A DNA stretch of 15,755 bases. Origin: a virus (taxonomy: Duplodnaviria > Heunggongvirae > Uroviricota > Caudoviricetes). Positions 1-12,492 of the stretch are shown here, piece after piece. A program made the position numbers and the translations under genes. A model generated the notes under the pieces. That model did no database searches. It was not told where the DNA came from and saw nothing but the letters and a program-made list of their open reading frames with translations. The stretch lies in the IMG/VR virus record IMGVR_UViG_2545824742_000009; one strand, given 5' to 3'. The first letter of the stretch is position 1, and each line of letters starts with the position of its first letter.

Positions 1-204
1 TTACTGGCAGCGTCTGAATTTATTCCCGTACCCGCCGTTATCCTTCGCCAGACCCGCCAGAACTAACTGAGTCAGTATTAACTGGCACTGGGCTTCGCTT
101 ACTCCGGTAGTTCTCGTCATCATGCGTGGCGTTACCCACTTGTCAGCAGGTAAGAAATGAAGGACTGCGGCGGCGGTTTCTGTCATATCTTGCTGTTTTA
201 TCAT
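1..204 (-). CDS. Small hypothetical protein (67 aa from the internal Met), possibly a winged-helix regulator
   Basis: ORF 1..228 ends with TAA at 1-3. The internal start MIKQQ at 204 is preceded by AGAAGGGA; the first ATG at 228 has no Shine-Dalgarno. Pattern FLPADKWVT...TGVSEAQCQLILTQLVLAGL looks like a small wHTH. No family recognised. Confidence 0.4.
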   Translation of the reverse strand: MIKQQDMTETAAAVLHFLPADKWVTPRMMTRTTGVSEAQCQLILTQLVLAGLAKDNGGYGNKFRRCQ

Positions 205-324
205 GTCTTTTTCCCTTCTGGTTAACATGACATACCAATAACTCTTGTCTAAAAAGCCAGCAAGATAAAAAGTCAGTATTCACGACCACCAGCGTGTTTA
301 CTGTACTGCACCAAGTTTACAGGT

Positions 325-350
325 ACAAAAAACCCGCTCAGTGGCGGGTT
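325..350 (-). terminator. Rho-independent terminator downstream of the lipoprotein gene (copy 1)
   Basis: Plus strand reads AAAAAA-AACCCGC-TCAGTG-GCGGGTT: 7-bp GC-rich stem with 6-nt loop. On the minus strand the hairpin is followed by a T-run. Lies about 80 nt after the lipoprotein stop. Confidence 0.65.
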
Positions 351-427
351 GCTATCACAGCTATATATTTACTTATTATGCCGTTACTAACATTTATCTT
401 CGACATATAATCGAAAACAAGGTTTAC

Positions 428-853
428 TTAAAACTCTGCTTTCATTTTATCCGGGAATTTTTTATTTGCAGCATAATAACTACCAAGTACATAAGCGTTC
501 ATTTGCTGCTCTACATCAACCCGACATGCCGCACTAGAACAAGCTCCACTGATAAGCCCAAAAGAACTCCCTTTAGCAGAGAGATCAGCTTTGATTTCCT
601 CTACAGTGTTTTTCCCCATAGCAACTACACACCCTGTCACAATATATCTAGCCTTCACATCATCCATGCTAAGGATAGTAGTTTTCGCAATTTTGCTGTA
701 TCCATCATTTTTATAAACATCCATGGCAAACGCACGGCAATCTGTATAATACGGACTTGCTTTAACTTGCGAATACTCAGGTAATTTCATACCTGCACAA
801 CCAACTAAACAAAAACCTATCGCTGCTATTAATACCTTTTTCATTACAGTCAT
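428..853 (-). CDS. Putative secreted lipoprotein (moron)
   Basis: N-terminus M(TVM)KKVLIAAIGFCLVGCAG has basic residues, a hydrophobic core and lipobox L-V-G-C. Visibly AT-rich compared with neighbours and flanked by terminators. Start could be ATG 853 or ATG 844. Confidence 0.7.
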   Translation of the reverse strand: MTVMKKVLIAAIGFCLVGCAGMKLPEYSQVKASPYYTDCRAFAMDVYKNDGYSKIAKTTILSMDDVKARYIVTGCVVAMGKNTVEEIKADLSAKGSSFGLISGACSSAACRVDVEQQMNAYVLGSYYAANKKFPDKMKAEF

Positions 854-1001
854 AACCTAGAAGCATCATTGAAACTAATTTATTAAATAATCATCGAGTT
901 TCTGGAATACAGACGTTAACCATCTCTCCAAAATCTAAAAGATAATAAGAAAAAATGTTTAACGCACCAATCCATTTCATAGTTTCATGAGACATCTGGC
1001 A

Positions 1002-1027
1002 CAAAAAAACCCGCTCAGTGGCGGGTT
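1002..1027 (-). terminator. Rho-independent terminator downstream of the Q-like gene (copy 2, near-identical to 325..350)
   Basis: Same AACCCGC-TCAGTG-GCGGGTT hairpin, preceded on the plus strand by an A7 run (T-run on the minus strand). About 26 bp are identical to the copy at 325..350. Confidence 0.65.
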
Positions 1028-1073
1028 CTTAAATCTTATCAACGGTAGACATACAAAGCCCATCGTTGGGAAA

Positions 1074-1102
1074 ATCTTATCCATATTTTTTGAAAAATGC
1101 AA
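1074..1102 (-). promoter_or_regulatory. Candidate sigma-70 late promoter between the Q-like gene and the terminator
   Basis: Minus strand reads TTGCAT (-35, plus 1097-1102), 17-nt spacer, TAAGAT (-10, plus 1074-1079). Sits about 45-70 nt upstream of the 1002..1027 hairpin, as in lambda pR-prime/tR-prime. Confidence 0.45.
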
Positions 1103-1133
1103 GCATCATGTCGTCATCTTCGGCGAAAACCAT

Positions 1134-1886
1134 TTATCTTGTCACATTTCTCAATTGTATCTCTGCATATGCTTCTTCCTGCCAGCACTTTGTAACCAGT
1201 TTATCAATGACATCTGCATATCCTTTGTACCACTGATAATCCGTCAGGTCTGGTACCAGCTTCTGGACATGATGCCGCGCCAGTGTGGTTGGTAAACGGC
1301 TAAACCGGTTTCCATTGCAACGCCCACAAATCTTATAAACAGGCGTGCCATGAAGCCGGGTCCTTTTTTCATCCAGGACAATACCTTTACCCTTACACCC
1401 TCTGCACGCTGTGCTGACTTCTCCCTTACCATGACAATGCTGACATAGTTCCTTCACCCACTCTTCCTTGATAACAGATTCCCCGCTTCTGGAGTGTTTC
1501 ACCACTTCGCGCAATACATTATGAAATCCAGTACCAGCACAATGCTCACAGCGAGCCTTACTTGCCGCAGACCTGGAATAATCAGCAAAGGCAAAATTCA
1601 CAAGGTAAGGGATGATCTGTAACCGGGTTTCTTCACTCAATTTGTTCAATGTCGGGTTATCCAGTGCCATCGCGTAATTGAGCAGACCTTCAATCGCAAA
1701 TTGAGGATCCTGAACACCAACTTTTGCCAGGAATAAGGCAAACCCAAGCGGTGCTTTCGACTGCACCATCCCCTGCGCAGCCATCACATCTGTAATTGTT
1801 AAACCACCCGAGCCTGTCGCCGGTGCGTCATCACTCAATTTTGGAGATTTTGGGGAGTAATATTTTGGTAAGGCTTCAAGGTTCAT
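1134..1886 (-). CDS. Q-like late-gene antitermination protein with DnaJ-type zinc-finger repeats
   Basis: 250 aa with four CxxCxGxG repeats (CEHCAGTG, CQHCHGKG, CRGCKGKG, CGRCNGN). Sits downstream of a DUF968 gene and upstream of a promoter/terminator unit, as for QuuQ-type Q proteins. Family assignment is from memory. Confidence 0.6.
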   Translation of the reverse strand: MNLEALPKYYSPKSPKLSDDAPATGSGGLTITDVMAAQGMVQSKAPLGFALFLAKVGVQDPQFAIEGLLNYAMALDNPTLNKLSEETRLQIIPYLVNFAFADYSRSAASKARCEHCAGTGFHNVLREVVKHSRSGESVIKEEWVKELCQHCHGKGEVSTACRGCKGKGIVLDEKRTRLHGTPVYKICGRCNGNRFSRLPTTLARHHVQKLVPDLTDYQWYKGYADVIDKLVTKCWQEEAYAEIQLRNVTR

Positions 1887-1899
1887 GCTCGTTCTCCAC

Positions 1900-2895
1900 T
1901 TACGCCAGTACGCCTATTGCCAGCGCACGATCGATAAAACGAAATATCAGCTCCAGCTGGGAGCCATACTTCTCTTCAAATGCCACGGTATCCGCATGCA
2001 GCTCGTCGTGATGCTTTCTGCACAAAGGCAACACAAAGAGGTCATGCGCTTTTGTTCCCATTCCACCCTGACCGTGACCTATCAGGTGGTGGGGATCATC
2101 AGCGGGCTTTCCACAACATGCACACGGCTGTGTCTTAACCCAGCGCGTGTACTTTTCATTAACCCAGCGGCGACGTTTTGGGCGTAACATAAAAGACTCC
2201 GGCGACTCCGGATCCACTTTCAGCGCCAGCACCTTTTTCGCTTTATCCTGGATGATGCTGGTGGCAGGAACCGAAGGCACAAGGTCACTTTCCCGGGTGA
2301 CAGACGGCACAACAGGCTTTGGTAATCTCAGTGCCTTACGGGCTGCACTTTCCGGTAAGGCATCCGCCAGGTCATTACGAATCAGCCACCAGCACAGTTC
2401 CGGCATTGTCACAACGTGACTGTCATCAAAACCGAGATCCCGACGCACAACAGACAACACCCAGCGGGCACAGTTATCCGTTGCCATTGATTCCAGCCGT
2501 TCCGTGAACTGATCGCGCAGCTGGTTATCACAGTGCCAGCACAGACGGATTGCGCCCGGCGCGTGTCGCATTGTGGTCATGTTCTCGCTGTGCCAGTCGG
2601 AATGAGGCCACTGGCAGCCTTTTTCACGAAGTAACCAGCTTTCAAGACATTCCACGCCACCAGCACGACGGATCACTGCCTCATTGCGGAACACAGCCCG
2701 AACGGCAGGATCATCCGCCAGCGGTTGTGATGCCGCCGGAACGGCACCACTGGCGAAAGATGAATAACGTTCCGGCTCAGGCTCCAGCAGGACACGCCCC
2801 TGCATAAACAGGGGCATCAGCTCTGAACCTGGCCTGAACAATACGATCCCCATACGCGGGGCAATTTCAGGGGTCAGTAGTGCTCTCACGGTCAC
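1900..2895 (-). CDS. DUF968-family phage protein with C-terminal Cys/His (HNH-like) motif
   Basis: 331 aa. C-terminus has CACCGK...HHLIGHG...CRKHHDELH. Position immediately upstream of Q matches Qin-prophage YdfU-like proteins. Confidence 0.55.
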   Translation of the reverse strand: MTVRALLTPEIAPRMGIVLFRPGSELMPLFMQGRVLLEPEPERYSSFASGAVPAASQPLADDPAVRAVFRNEAVIRRAGGVECLESWLLREKGCQWPHSDWHSENMTTMRHAPGAIRLCWHCDNQLRDQFTERLESMATDNCARWVLSVVRRDLGFDDSHVVTMPELCWWLIRNDLADALPESAARKALRLPKPVVPSVTRESDLVPSVPATSIIQDKAKKVLALKVDPESPESFMLRPKRRRWVNEKYTRWVKTQPCACCGKPADDPHHLIGHGQGGMGTKAHDLFVLPLCRKHHDELHADTVAFEEKYGSQLELIFRFIDRALAIGVLA

Positions 2896-2896
2896 C

Positions 2897-3706
2897 TCAA
2901 TGAACGGTATCGAGCAGCTTTAACAGCTCAGGGAATCGGGATTCGAAGAAATGCGGCTGCGTCTCGCGCGGATTTGCGGGACTGGTGATGTTCTTGCCGA
3001 ACATGCAGCCTTTCGCTGTCAGCGACCAGAATTTTTTGATGTTGTTAATCGAGGTACGGCTGTATCGTTCGCGTTGTTCAACGATCCCCAGCTTCGCCAT
3101 CTGGTGATATGCCTGATTAGCCGTAAGGCGGATACCATACTGTTTCAGCAGTGCACTCAGCGACAGCGTAGGGCGACTTGAGCCATCAGGCGCGTCAGCA
3201 GGAGCATCAATGGCATAGCGCGGTGCCAGATTCGGTAAGCCAACAGCCTCCTGGAGTTTCTGACAGGCCCCAAGCACAGATGAGTTAGACAGGTTTAACT
3301 CCCTGCGCATAAAGTCCAGCAGAATCACTCCAGCCTGCATCTTGTCAGCAGCCTGCCCGGATAATTTTTCCGGTGCGCTGGTTACCATATCGAAAGTACG
3401 GATCACCTTCAGATGGAATGACGGGCTGATCCACATTGCATAGGCATACACCAGTTCCTTACAGACATACGTCCCCTGGTTATTTCCGCCATTAATGACG
3501 CTAACTGGTTGATTTTGTTCCAGAGGCGGAATTCCACCCTCGGTGAAAAGTTGTTCAATCAATTCACAGGTTTGCTTATTGGAGAGCCAGTATTTCGGGC
3601 GGTTTTTTTGTTCTCCCCCGGCTGCCCTGTGCAGATCGTTCAGGCTGTAACGCCCATAAGCATCACGACGAACTTCAATACCATCAATAACCATCAGATT
3701 ATTCAT
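2897..3706 (-). CDS. KilA-N domain protein (putative antirepressor-like)
   Basis: 269 aa. N-terminus VIDGIEVRRDAYGRYSLNDLHRAAGG...RPKYWLSNKQTCELIEQL is characteristic of KilA-N/Bro-N-type domains. Start is 1 nt after the DUF968 start region. Confidence 0.6.
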   Translation of the reverse strand: MNNLMVIDGIEVRRDAYGRYSLNDLHRAAGGEQKNRPKYWLSNKQTCELIEQLFTEGGIPPLEQNQPVSVINGGNNQGTYVCKELVYAYAMWISPSFHLKVIRTFDMVTSAPEKLSGQAADKMQAGVILLDFMRRELNLSNSSVLGACQKLQEAVGLPNLAPRYAIDAPADAPDGSSRPTLSLSALLKQYGIRLTANQAYHQMAKLGIVEQRERYSRTSINNIKKFWSLTAKGCMFGKNITSPANPRETQPHFFESRFPELLKLLDTVH

Positions 3707-4115: not shown

Positions 4116-4438
4116 ACTTTCAGGCCTCTCTCATGTAACCAGTGAGTTGCACGCAGCCTTGCGTTTTCCTCACCGGCAAGCAGTGAGCGGATAATCCCGA
4201 CCGCCTCGCTGTCGTCGTCCTTCACCGCGGTATGAAGCGTGATCCCCCGGGCCACACCACGCTTTATCGTGATGACGCCTTTTTTCTCCAGTGCGCGAAG
4301 ATGCTCCACCGCTGCATTCACCGAACGGTATCCCAGCATGGTTGCCACCTCCTGATTGGTTGGCGGGAAGCCACGCTCTTTCTGATAAGAAATCAGCATA
4401 TCCAGCACCTGCTGCTGGCATTGAGTTAACGTCGTCAT
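4112..4438 (-). CDS. Small LexA-type DNA-binding-domain protein
   Basis: 108 aa. FPPTNQEVATMLGYRSVNAAVEHLRALEKKGVI resembles the LexA N-terminal winged helix. Start overlaps the upstream stop (ATGA) and its own stop overlaps the rusA start. Confidence 0.5.
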   Translation of the reverse strand: MTTLTQCQQQVLDMLISYQKERGFPPTNQEVATMLGYRSVNAAVEHLRALEKKGVITIKRGVARGITLHTAVKDDDSEAVGIIRSLLAGEENARLRATHWLHERGLKV

Positions 4439-5088
4439 GCCGCCATCTCCCTGACCAGCTTTTCCGCCTGCAGGCGAACCTGCGCCAGAAACGCCTCACC
4501 ACATGCCTCAAGTTCATCGCGCCCGATATAGCTGATTGCCGGTCCCTTCCAGGTCTTGTCGAAAACAGCAATAGCACCAGCGAAGAAAGCGCCTGTCGGC
4601 ACCTGCTTCTCATCCTTCGGGATAAACCAGGCAGGCAGTTCAAAACCAATACGCCCGCGAATAAAAGCAATATGATCTGCATCTTCCGGCCACCACACTT
4701 CGCTGGTGGCAGCTTTGATCAGGAAAACATAGCGCCCGCCCTTATCACGCATGGCACTGGCATGCTTCATGATGTAACGCATGCCGGTGATGTATTGCCC
4801 CTCATGCTGACTGGCGCGGCTGTATGGGGGATTTCCAAAGGCAGCACCTTTAAGCTCCGCAAGGCGTTCTGACCAGTCATGCGCCAGCGCGTTGTCTTCC
4901 GCCGTGTAATACGCAGCGCATTTGGCGTTATCACCGTCAGTGAACAGATCCAGAACAAACGGACCAAACAGGGTGTTAATTCCCCAGAAAATGTTGTCCG
5001 GCGTGCGCCACTGATCGCCCACTTCCTTCAGTTCATGGGCTGGTTTGTTCCGCAGTTCCACCAGCTCCTGGCAATATTTATTACTCAT
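4435..5088 (-). CDS. Phage DNA N6-adenine methyltransferase (Dam-like)
   Basis: Contains FGNPPYS (the (D/N)PP(Y/F) catalytic motif). Chosen start is ATG at 5086-5088 (MSNKY...), which overlaps the upstream TAA as TAATG; the ORF track extends to 5121. Confidence 0.8.
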   Translation of the reverse strand: MSNKYCQELVELRNKPAHELKEVGDQWRTPDNIFWGINTLFGPFVLDLFTDGDNAKCAAYYTAEDNALAHDWSERLAELKGAAFGNPPYSRASQHEGQYITGMRYIMKHASAMRDKGGRYVFLIKAATSEVWWPEDADHIAFIRGRIGFELPAWFIPKDEKQVPTGAFFAGAIAVFDKTWKGPAISYIGRDELEACGEAFLAQVRLQAEKLVREMAA

Positions 5089-5576
5089 TAAGCCCCCACG
5101 TAATTCCCTGACAGATACCACTCATCACCCGATACAGCGCGCTTGCTGCTTTTCCGTAAACACTGCTCACGACGCGCCAGAAAATTGTTTCGTTCTGGCT
5201 GGGAGTGGCTTTCACGGAATGCCGCCATCCACACCGTTGCAGCACGACGGTATAAGCCCCTGGACTCCAGTTCTTCAGCCTGGCGGGTCAGGCATAAAAT
5301 CTCCCGCGGGTCGTTAGTGCCGACATAGAAATTGCGCACAGGTCTGGTTTCACGAACTGGTTGCCGTTCCGCCTCCGGCGATATCTTTATCTGGCGCGGA
5401 AAATGTCTGCGTGTATCCCCTTCACAACGGTGAGCCACACGCCCACTCTGACGTAACTTGCTTGCTGACTGCAGAACGCGCTGCCGTGAGTAACCTGCAA
5501 AAGCATCCGCAATGTCTCCGGAAGTACACCCCGGATGGGCTTCAATGAATTTCTGAACTTCATTCAAAAGACTCAT
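5088..5576 (-). CDS. Hypothetical phage protein (162 aa); C-terminal part may resemble small ANR/PerC-like regulators
   Basis: ATG at 5574-5576 lies 2 nt after the upstream TGA; the ORF track uses GTG at 5582. Basic, Arg-rich protein with no enzymatic motif seen. The ANR/PerC resemblance is a weak recollection. Confidence 0.5.
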   Translation of the reverse strand: MSLLNEVQKFIEAHPGCTSGDIADAFAGYSRQRVLQSASKLRQSGRVAHRCEGDTRRHFPRQIKISPEAERQPVRETRPVRNFYVGTNDPREILCLTRQAEELESRGLYRRAATVWMAAFRESHSQPERNNFLARREQCLRKSSKRAVSGDEWYLSGNYVGA

Positions 5577-11086: not shown

Positions 11087-11623
11087 ATGTCATTTATTAA
11101 AACTTTTTCCGGGAAGCATTTTTATTATGACAGGATAAATAAAGACAACATCGATATTAACGATATCGCGGTTTCCCTTTCAAATATCTGTCGCTTTGCC
11201 GGTCATCTTTCACACTTCTACAGCGTCGCCCAACATGCGGTGCTTTGCAGCCAGCTGGTGCCGCAGGAATTTGCTTTTGAAGCGTTAATGCATGATGCAA
11301 CAGAAGCGTATTGCCAGGACATCCCCGCGCCACTGAAACGCCTTCTTCCTGACTATAAACGGATGGAAGAAAAAATAGACGCCGTAATCCGTGAGAAATA
11401 CGGGTTACCCCCGGTTATGAGTACGCCCGTGAAATATGCCGATCTCATCATGCTGGCAACCGAACGCCGCGATCTCGGGCTTGATGATGGCTCTTTCTGG
11501 CCTGTACTGGAAGGTATCCCGGCAACAGAGATGTTCAACGTGATTCCACTGGCACCGGGCTATGCCTACGGGATGTTTATGGAACGCTTCAACGAGTTAT
11601 CGGAATTACGCAAATGTGCATAA
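11087..11623 (+). CDS. HD-domain phosphohydrolase (YfdR/YfbR-like 5'-deoxynucleotidase family)
   Basis: 178 aa from ATG 11087 (MSFIKTF...), with GGAG 9 nt upstream. Metal-binding H...HD pattern (SVAQHAV...LMHDATEAY). Size equals CPS-53 YfdR. Confidence 0.7.
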   Translation: MSFIKTFSGKHFYYDRINKDNIDINDIAVSLSNICRFAGHLSHFYSVAQHAVLCSQLVPQEFAFEALMHDATEAYCQDIPAPLKRLLPDYKRMEEKIDAVIREKYGLPPVMSTPVKYADLIMLATERRDLGLDDGSFWPVLEGIPATEMFNVIPLAPGYAYGMFMERFNELSELRKCA

Positions 11624-12492
11624 CTCATGTAGTTAGTTTTTCTGGCGGGAGAACATCTGCATATCTTGTTCACCTGATGGAAGAACAAAGAAAGGCTGGC
11701 AATAACGTCTGCTACATCTTTATGGATACCGGTTGCGAACATCCGCTGACATACCGCTTTATTCGGGAGGTTGTGAAGTTCTGGGGCATACCGCTAACTG
11801 TGTTGCAGGTCGATATAAATCCAGAGCTTGGGCAGCCAAATGGTTATACGGAATGGGAACCAAAGGATATTCAGACACGAATGCCGGTGCTTAAACCGTT
11901 TATGGACATGGTAAAAAAATATGGCACGCCATACATCGGCGGCGCGTTCTGCACTGACAGATTAAAACTCACCCCCTTCACAAAATACTGCGATGACCAT
12001 TTCGGACGAGGGAATTACATCACATGGCTGGGTATTCGTGCAGACGAACCTCGTAGGCTGAAACCGAAATCGGGCGTCCGGTATCTTGCCGAGCTATCTG
12101 ATTTTGATAAGTCGGATGTTATCCGGTGGTGGCATAAACAACCTTTTGATTTGCAAATCCCGGAGCACCTCGGGAACTGTGTTTTCTGCATCAAAAAGTC
12201 CACGCAAAAGCTGGGGCTTGCATGTAAAGACGAACCTGGTCTGATGCGAGTTTTTAATGAGCTGGTTACAGGTAAACACGTCCGGGATGGTCACCGAAAG
12301 ACAGACAAAGACGTTATGTACCGTGGTCATCTGAGCCTTGACGGGATTGCCAGAATGTATGCCGACAGCGACTACAGAAATTTGTATCAGGCGATGGTGC
12401 AAGCCAGGCGATTCGATACCGGCTCGTGTTCAGAGTCATGTGAAATCTGGGGTGATCAATTGGAATTGAAATTCGAAGAGGTGGTGGCATGA
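11614..12492 (+). CDS. PAPS-reductase-family PP-loop protein (CysH/DndC-like fold)
   Basis: 292 aa. PP-loop VSFSGGRTSAYL at the N-terminus; FMDTGCEHPLTYRFIREV matches the CysH DTG..PET..F motif. C-terminal Cys cluster CVFC...C...CSESCE. Overlaps the HD gene by 10 nt. Confidence 0.75.
   Translation: MCITHVVSFSGGRTSAYLVHLMEEQRKAGNNVCYIFMDTGCEHPLTYRFIREVVKFWGIPLTVLQVDINPELGQPNGYTEWEPKDIQTRMPVLKPFMDMVKKYGTPYIGGAFCTDRLKLTPFTKYCDDHFGRGNYITWLGIRADEPRRLKPKSGVRYLAELSDFDKSDVIRWWHKQPFDLQIPEHLGNCVFCIKKSTQKLGLACKDEPGLMRVFNELVTGKHVRDGHRKTDKDVMYRGHLSLDGIARMYADSDYRNLYQAMVQARRFDTGSCSESCEIWGDQLELKFEEVVA

Follow-up and report, generated by a model that had tools for sequence, protein, structure and literature searches.

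The question raised by this locus is how a lipoprotein gene comes to lie between two copies of the same transcription terminator behind the antiterminator gene Q, and whether the bracketed segment is a moron. A first-pass annotation of the stretch of viral DNA analysed here (15,755 nucleotides, referred to as the window) had interpreted the arrangement as the footprint of a moron cassette inserted at, or copied with, the terminator following the late promoter. Throughout the first 8 kb of the window, all genes are on the minus strand. We confirm the lipoprotein gene being located downstream of Q, i.e. of an antiterminator gene of the lambda/82-type (ydfT/quuQ-like; 250 aa) at 1886..1134 on the minus strand (Pfam PF03589, E=9.6e-54; phrog_127), the product of which matches lambda Q structures (chain 7ubm_Q at E=1e-37 and also 4mo1). 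The first gene past the cassette encodes an SfV orf47-like protein of 75 aa (1..228, minus strand; phrog_331, a PHROG without assigned function), and past orf47 the gene order in SfV, 720R4 and Ayreon is DNA methylase, terminator and lysis genes. Over positions 1-1900 Ayreon is 99.7% identical to the window. The remaining window represents a lambdoid early region with an integrase, CI-type and CII-type regulators, an O-type replication protein, RusA, KilA-N and DUF968. Separate ORFs at 4435-5121 (minus strand) and 11614-12492 (plus strand) match PAPS reductase/DNA methyltransferase PHROGs (phrog_33262, phrog_111, phrog_424) and may constitute a DNA-modification module divided by the immunity region.

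Between Q and the cassette we identified a PR'-like late promoter (1062..1102, minus strand) composed of a -35 element TTGCAT (1102..1097), a 17-nt spacer and a -10 element TAAGAT (1079..1074). The lambda interval from Q to tR' can be aligned with the 107 nt between the Q stop codon and the Q-proximal terminator copy (copy A), and in this alignment TTGCAT and TAAGAT occupy the same columns as the lambda -35 and -10 hexamers. The sequence CAACGATGGG is identical in the window and in lambda and includes AACGAT at 1067..1062, which in lambda is the sigma70-dependent pause element. The alignment with lambda suggests that these promoter elements function as their lambda counterparts do. PR'-driven transcription should start near 1067 and, without Q, should stop at approximately 1003 in copy A, resulting in a leader of approximately 65 nt.

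The first-pass annotation had described the repeat as a 26-bp core at 325-350 and 1002-1027. The repeat as such stands, as none of 200 shuffles yielded two matches, and its length and coordinates have to be revised: the 26-mer is exact at 325-350 and shows two mismatches at 1002-1027, because the A-runs differ in length by one nucleotide (A6 at 327-332 compared to A7 at 1003-1009). The ungapped identical core comprises 24 bp (327-350 and 1004-1027), and the best description of the repeat is 26/27 nt at 325-350 and 1001-1027 with a gap in the A-run. Read on the minus strand, both copies consist of AACCCGCCACTGAGCGGG, followed by T6 in copy B (350..325) or T7 in copy A (1027..1001), and by this sequence have the form of intrinsic terminators. 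Copy A (1001..1030, minus strand; stem CCCGC/GCGGG, loop CACTGA, T7) folds with -14.1 kcal/mol into a 10-bp stem (z -3.2); the Q-distal copy B (325..350, minus strand) has the identical hairpin with T6, folds with -12 kcal/mol and closes the cassette before the orf47-like gene. Both copies are annotated as terminators in the Ayreon GenBank record. A consensus terminator scan found copy B at 350..331 and missed copy A, probably because the stem of copy A is extended by base pairing between its upstream A-tract and some of the T-run. Searching positions 1-2000 against Rfam (E<=1) revealed no known RNA family and only sub-threshold weak matches (Trp and Leu leaders, STnc130), which are explained by the terminator shape. 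Copy A is the first intrinsic terminator after PR' and the pause element, right behind Q and 38 nt beyond the pause element. As it would end a leader of some 65 nt from a promoter resembling lambda PR', we predict copy A to be the tR' equivalent of this phage.

Copy A is followed downstream by an AT-rich spacer, the lipoprotein ORF (853..428, minus strand; 141 aa from the first ATG, 138 aa from the ATG at 844; phrog_4748, again a PHROG without assigned function), a 77-nt spacer, copy B and the 75-aa gene (228..1). That the gene between the copies is AT-rich, as had been noted, is supported by a GC content of 35.8% for the cassette (351-1003) and 38.5% for the lipoprotein gene compared to 47.6% for the window and 46.7% for Q. 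Reading the sequence upstream of the gene, we found a candidate cassette promoter (942..970, minus strand) with the elements TTGGTG (970..965) and TATTAT (947..942) spaced by 17 nt; its -35 element is weak (3/6) and it was missed by a consensus scan. At the aligned position, the cassettes of two Salmonella prophages (L004 and L148) contain TTGGTA and TATCAT spaced by 18 nt within intergenic DNA that has otherwise strongly diverged, and this counterpart of the candidate elements is suggestive. We rejected a 37-aa ORF at 1004..891 (minus strand; phrog_37626), to which the records of Ayreon and PhiR47_1 assign a hypothetical protein: it overlaps copy A, the Salmonella cassette lacks both a conserved equivalent and its start codon, and the ORF seems to be an artefact of annotation. 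The plus-strand ORFs at 341-784 and 987-1295 showed no PHROG match and were set aside as well.

The gene product has the features of a lipoprotein, in agreement with the lipobox LVGC reported by the first-pass annotation. Its N-terminus MKKVLIAAIGFCLVGC has lysines ahead of a hydrophobic stretch, and the lipobox L-V-G-C comes next, with Ala at position +2, so that a charged N-terminus, a hydrophobic stretch and the pattern [LVI][ASTVI][GAS]C are all present. The lipobox Cys and the preceding Gly are invariant in 8/8 aligned members (55-99% identity), as are four further Cys residues, and the distant relatives P0015 (LSGC) and P0014 (LAGC) also contain a lipobox. Pairwise dN/dS values range from 0.08 to 0.22 for those pairs for which dS was computable; the low dN/dS together with the invariant lipobox and cysteines supports a real and functional gene. 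Lipoproteins lacking Asp at position +2 are sorted to the outer membrane (Lol rule), and Ala at this position predicts Lol-dependent outer-membrane sorting here. The mature part of approximately 122 aa is helical with four Cys beyond the lipobox Cys, and in the AlphaFold (AF2) model, which is of moderate confidence (pLDDT 70), it forms four long helices and one short helix, suggesting that the product is probably a periplasm-facing, disulfide-bonded helical lipoprotein. A structure search with this model returned generic helical-bundle matches and no informative fold match. We found no family match in Pfam, NCBIfam and PADLOC, no match among PDB sequences and no sequence or fold homology to Bor/Iss, Cor, Llp or TraT. 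Surface exclusion and serum resistance, which the first-pass annotation had named as possible roles, are conjectures that these sequence and structure searches neither backed nor contradicted. A word-indexed search of 5.8 billion clusters yielded 9 matches of the lipoprotein family, and a HMMER profile run against 1.84 billion representative proteins yielded 8, mostly fragments, with no tie to a larger family. The gene is mentioned neither in the Ayreon genome announcement nor in the moron papers PMC3594210 and PMC6969025. As a conserved orphan with no known relative, the lipoprotein is a reasonable candidate for a new prophage envelope function, and its most likely role is, as we infer, modification of the lysogen envelope, i.e. 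lysogenic conversion.

Comparison with relatives lacking the lipoprotein gene supported the proposal as far as an insertion or deletion at the terminator is concerned. vB_EcoM-720R4 (720R4) and SfV have the same flanks, with Q, a single hairpin, orf47, methylase, terminator and holin, and no lipoprotein gene; the alignment of the window with both shows a clean gap of 677 bp ending inside the repeat. The single hairpin and the clean gap show the lipoprotein segment to be an indel bounded exactly by the hairpin, which can equally be written as 351-1027 or 327-1003 because the boundary falls within the repeat. Of 5,426 complete E. coli genomes, 214 (approximately 4%) contain the cassette interior, chromosomally in all cases, and 257 contain the 221-bp empty junction intact. 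As 213 E. coli genomes match at least 80% of window positions 1-1900, almost all E. coli cassettes (213/214) reside in one context, and the cassette shows no visible hopping in this species. In the E. coli matches H81 and H50 (both NZ_OZ501612.1) and H42 (NZ_CP015138.1) we observed IS1/IS903B insertions in the region, with IS1 located inside the cassette-interior match in H81.

We therefore regard it as probable that the 677-bp segment is a moron, a self-contained accessory cassette in the late-operon leader of a lambda-like E. coli prophage. The term moron was defined on HK97 and HK022, with lambda bor as an example (PMC3594210). Of its features we found presence or absence at a precise site, deviant GC content, an own downstream terminator and a candidate promoter with a weak -35 element. 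In the lysogen, with PR'-like transcription stopping at copy A, expression of the lipoprotein would depend on its own promoter or on polymerase reading through copy A, and copy B would stop the lipoprotein transcript before orf47, the methylase and the lysis genes. After induction, Q-modified polymerase would pass both hairpins and the gene would join the late transcript. This architecture suggests how a late leader can accommodate a gene that has its own promoter: a second terminator would restore the silence of the lysis genes in the lysogen, being useful because a cassette with an own promoter behind tR' would otherwise drive the late genes.

Homologues of the lipoprotein gene are found in other settings. 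The Salmonella prophages L004 and L148 carry a gene of 76% identity behind a different Q family (DUF1133/PF06530), with the same hairpin before the lipoprotein gene and another terminator (AAAACCCGCATTGCGCGGGTTTTT) after it. The homology between E. coli and Salmonella starts exactly at the hairpin and continues via tail and spacer into the gene, showing that copy A travels with the lipoprotein gene. In L004, the cassette is directly followed at 4560-4812 by the 3' third (C-terminal ~100 codons) of an orf48-type DNA methylase; as only this 3' part is left, orf47 and the greater part of the methylase gene have been replaced by the cassette in L004. Further homologues are located in the early-left region of Rac-like prophages beside a VapBC pair and on a Buttiauxella plasmid, and both the Rac-like and the plasmid homologues have their own terminator-like sequence after the stop codon. 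On the Buttiauxella plasmid (L005, 4446-4745) and on a metagenome contig (L149, 751-1050), a 99-aa gene immediately follows the lipoprotein gene, its product containing a lipobox LSAC in L149; the cassette in the window has no such partner.

The hairpin itself is shared far beyond the lipoprotein gene. An exact-match scan of IMG/VR with CCCGCCACTGAGCGGGTTTTTT returned at least 120 contigs, and loop controls with the same stem returned 5 contigs for a complementary and 12 contigs for a permuted loop. The motif CCCGCCACTGAGCGGG-T6 (22-nt hairpin plus T-run) occurs at no fewer than 124 sites, belonging to at least 52 upstream and at least 61 downstream flank clusters, and at least 48 of these sites are mutually different on both flanks. 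Among the matches listed, the hairpin is found behind at least three kinds of Q genes and also between tail, baseplate and lysis genes, and a tail ..TGCCTG after the T-run, often followed by an SD-like GGAG, is over-represented. The orf47 leader is, among the matches listed, joined at the hairpin to three upstream sequences: in 16 loci to the leader of the lambda/82 type, in 12 loci to the 3' end of the lipoprotein cassette and in another 12 loci to the sequence past a Q-like gene of ~127 aa, which was judged by eye to be of the phage-21 type. Several other upstream clusters among these matches are combined with between two and four downstream clusters. BLAST matches to only one side of the junction query were obtained in approximately 1,400 additional E. 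coli genomes, and these one-sided matches break off at the edges of the hairpin or a few bases from them (query positions 121 and 89-99). PhiR47_1 is homologous to the window up to ~40 nt past copy B, from where tRNA genes and a holin take the place of orf47. The varied flanks and the breakpoints at the hairpin identify the hairpin as a mosaic joint. In a myovirus-like prophage (L114, reverse strand, 2010-3460), two hairpin copies bracket a 338-aa gene, by its position probably a baseplate-region gene, and a 118-aa ORF encoding both a signal peptide and the lipobox-like motif LTSC, which may be a second small lipoprotein cargo beside the hairpin.

The distribution of the cassette could also be read in the opposite direction, with the filled state being ancestral and 720R4, SfV and the 257 empty E. 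coli prophages having lost the cassette by recombination between the direct repeats. A crossover within the repeat yields exactly the junction of 720R4, and empty sites are found with T6 as well as with T7 runs; we dropped the interpretation of the T7-type sites as recombinants of copies A and B, since homopolymer slippage explains them equally well. We judge an ancestral filled state to be unlikely, as it is countered by the deviant GC content of the cassette, by the homologues at unrelated positions elsewhere and by the hairpin linking the orf47 leader to other, cassette-free Q modules. Gain and loss are not provable from the junctions, because recombination between the copies would regenerate the exact 720R4 sequence, and secondary losses of the cassette are likely. 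This reading concerns the direction of the event and not the nature of the element.

The duplication part of the first-pass proposal fared differently from the insertion part. The indel at the terminator of the late promoter is borne out by the empty sites in 720R4 and SfV; the identity of the copies does not serve as the footprint of a duplication, the hairpin being shared by at least 120 contigs. A local event, in which tR' doubled in situ by a target-site-like duplication or by unequal crossing-over and its two copies came to enclose captured lipoprotein DNA, is compatible with the identical 24-bp core, the exact boundaries and the single copy at the empty site. We nevertheless consider it quite unlikely. 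Alignment of both copies with their flanks confirms the identity of the core and shows that the tails after the T-run differ (GTGCCAGATG in copy A, GTACCTGTAA in copy B), and the tail of copy A is continuous with the Salmonella cassette behind another Q family, therefore copy A is not a copy of copy B. Moreover, members of the hairpin family are identical in approximately 50 contexts, so that identical copies A and B need no local duplication, and no transposase or integrase signature was found. That the lipoprotein is a normal late or lysis protein of the phage, e.g. a spanin-like or lysis-control protein, would fit its position between Q and the lysis genes and its predicted co-transcription with them after induction and is nonetheless highly improbable, since the gene is absent from the deposited complete genomes of SfV and 720R4, which retain their own Rz/Rz1, is closed off by its own terminator, has homologues on a plasmid and in the early-left region of other prophages and shows no similarity to any lysis family.

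Returning to the moron, the boundaries of which coincide with the hairpin to the nucleotide, and considering that this hairpin is widely shared at module junctions, gain by homologous recombination is most likely. The cassette, already having the hairpin on at least one side, would have recombined into the leader through the shared hairpin, and it could be lost by the same route. Recombination through a shared terminator is, as we infer, most likely the better model compared to random insertion or duplication in place. More tentatively, and as a possibility we hold at somewhat less than even, AAACCCGCCACTGAGCGGG-T6 with its short tail might represent a promiscuous regulatory cassette of temperate enterobacterial phages, similar to the PeSL elements discussed below, which spread by descent and recombination and not by convergence and which would serve as a preferred crossover for Q modules, for morons in late leaders and even for tail and baseplate modules, the lipoprotein cassette being one of its cargos.

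The moron as a kind of element is already known, and the region has been deposited and partly annotated in phage records; new are the orphan lipoprotein family and the promiscuous terminator. The occurrence of one terminator at homology breakpoints in approximately 50 phage contexts bears on the question of how lambdoid mosaics are formed. We furthermore observed that in 15 Stx2c-converting phages (e.g. L145, LC727876, 1-7900) Q, terminator, lipoprotein gene, terminator, orf47 and methylase are located directly upstream of tRNA-Met, tRNA-Arg, stx2A, stx2B and an ORF of 663 aa, which looks like nanS-p. According to the order of this block, two hairpin copies lie between PR' and the toxin genes, and the position of the cassette between Q/PR' and stx2 suggests that the lipoprotein gene is co-transcribed with the toxin genes on the late transcript.

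Compared to known systems, the locus resembles the PR'/6S RNA/tR' leader of lambda in having a promoter behind Q with aligned -35 and -10 elements, the identical CAACGATGGG and an intrinsic terminator for Q to override. It differs in the sequence of the hairpin, in the second terminator copy 677 bp further on and in the length of the leader, which is predicted to be approximately 65 nt here, in contrast to the lambda late leader of 194 nt. For the mosaic joints, relaxed recombination by Rad52-like phage recombinases offers a mechanism acting at short or diverged homology in lambdoid phages and defective prophages (De Paepe et al. 2014, PMC3945230); that study quotes a minimum of ~30 bp for Red-beta and worked with homologous stretches hundreds of bp long, in contrast to the 24-27 identical bp of the hairpin, which are at or below this minimum. 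The PeSL elements of T4-type phages, consisting of a strong early promoter and a stem-loop and for which mini-circles have been shown experimentally (Arbiol et al. 2010, PMC2839356), are likewise short repeated regulatory stem-loops bordering variable ORFs, with recombination between copies explaining insertions, deletions and replacements. Unlike in PeSL, the part shared here is a terminator with a short tail (TGCCTG), it belongs to temperate enterobacterial phages and it is known from sequence alone. The lambda gene lom is another example of a moron. The cassette shares with the morons of HK97 and HK022 and with lambda bor and lom the presence of extra DNA compared to relatives, the deviant GC content, the terminator behind the gene, a candidate promoter and an envelope cargo. 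Bor, too, is a lipoprotein, one that has no sequence or fold relation to the lipoprotein of the window. In contrast to morons of the bor/lom type, which follow lysis or tail genes, the cassette described here resides inside the PR' leader right behind tR'.
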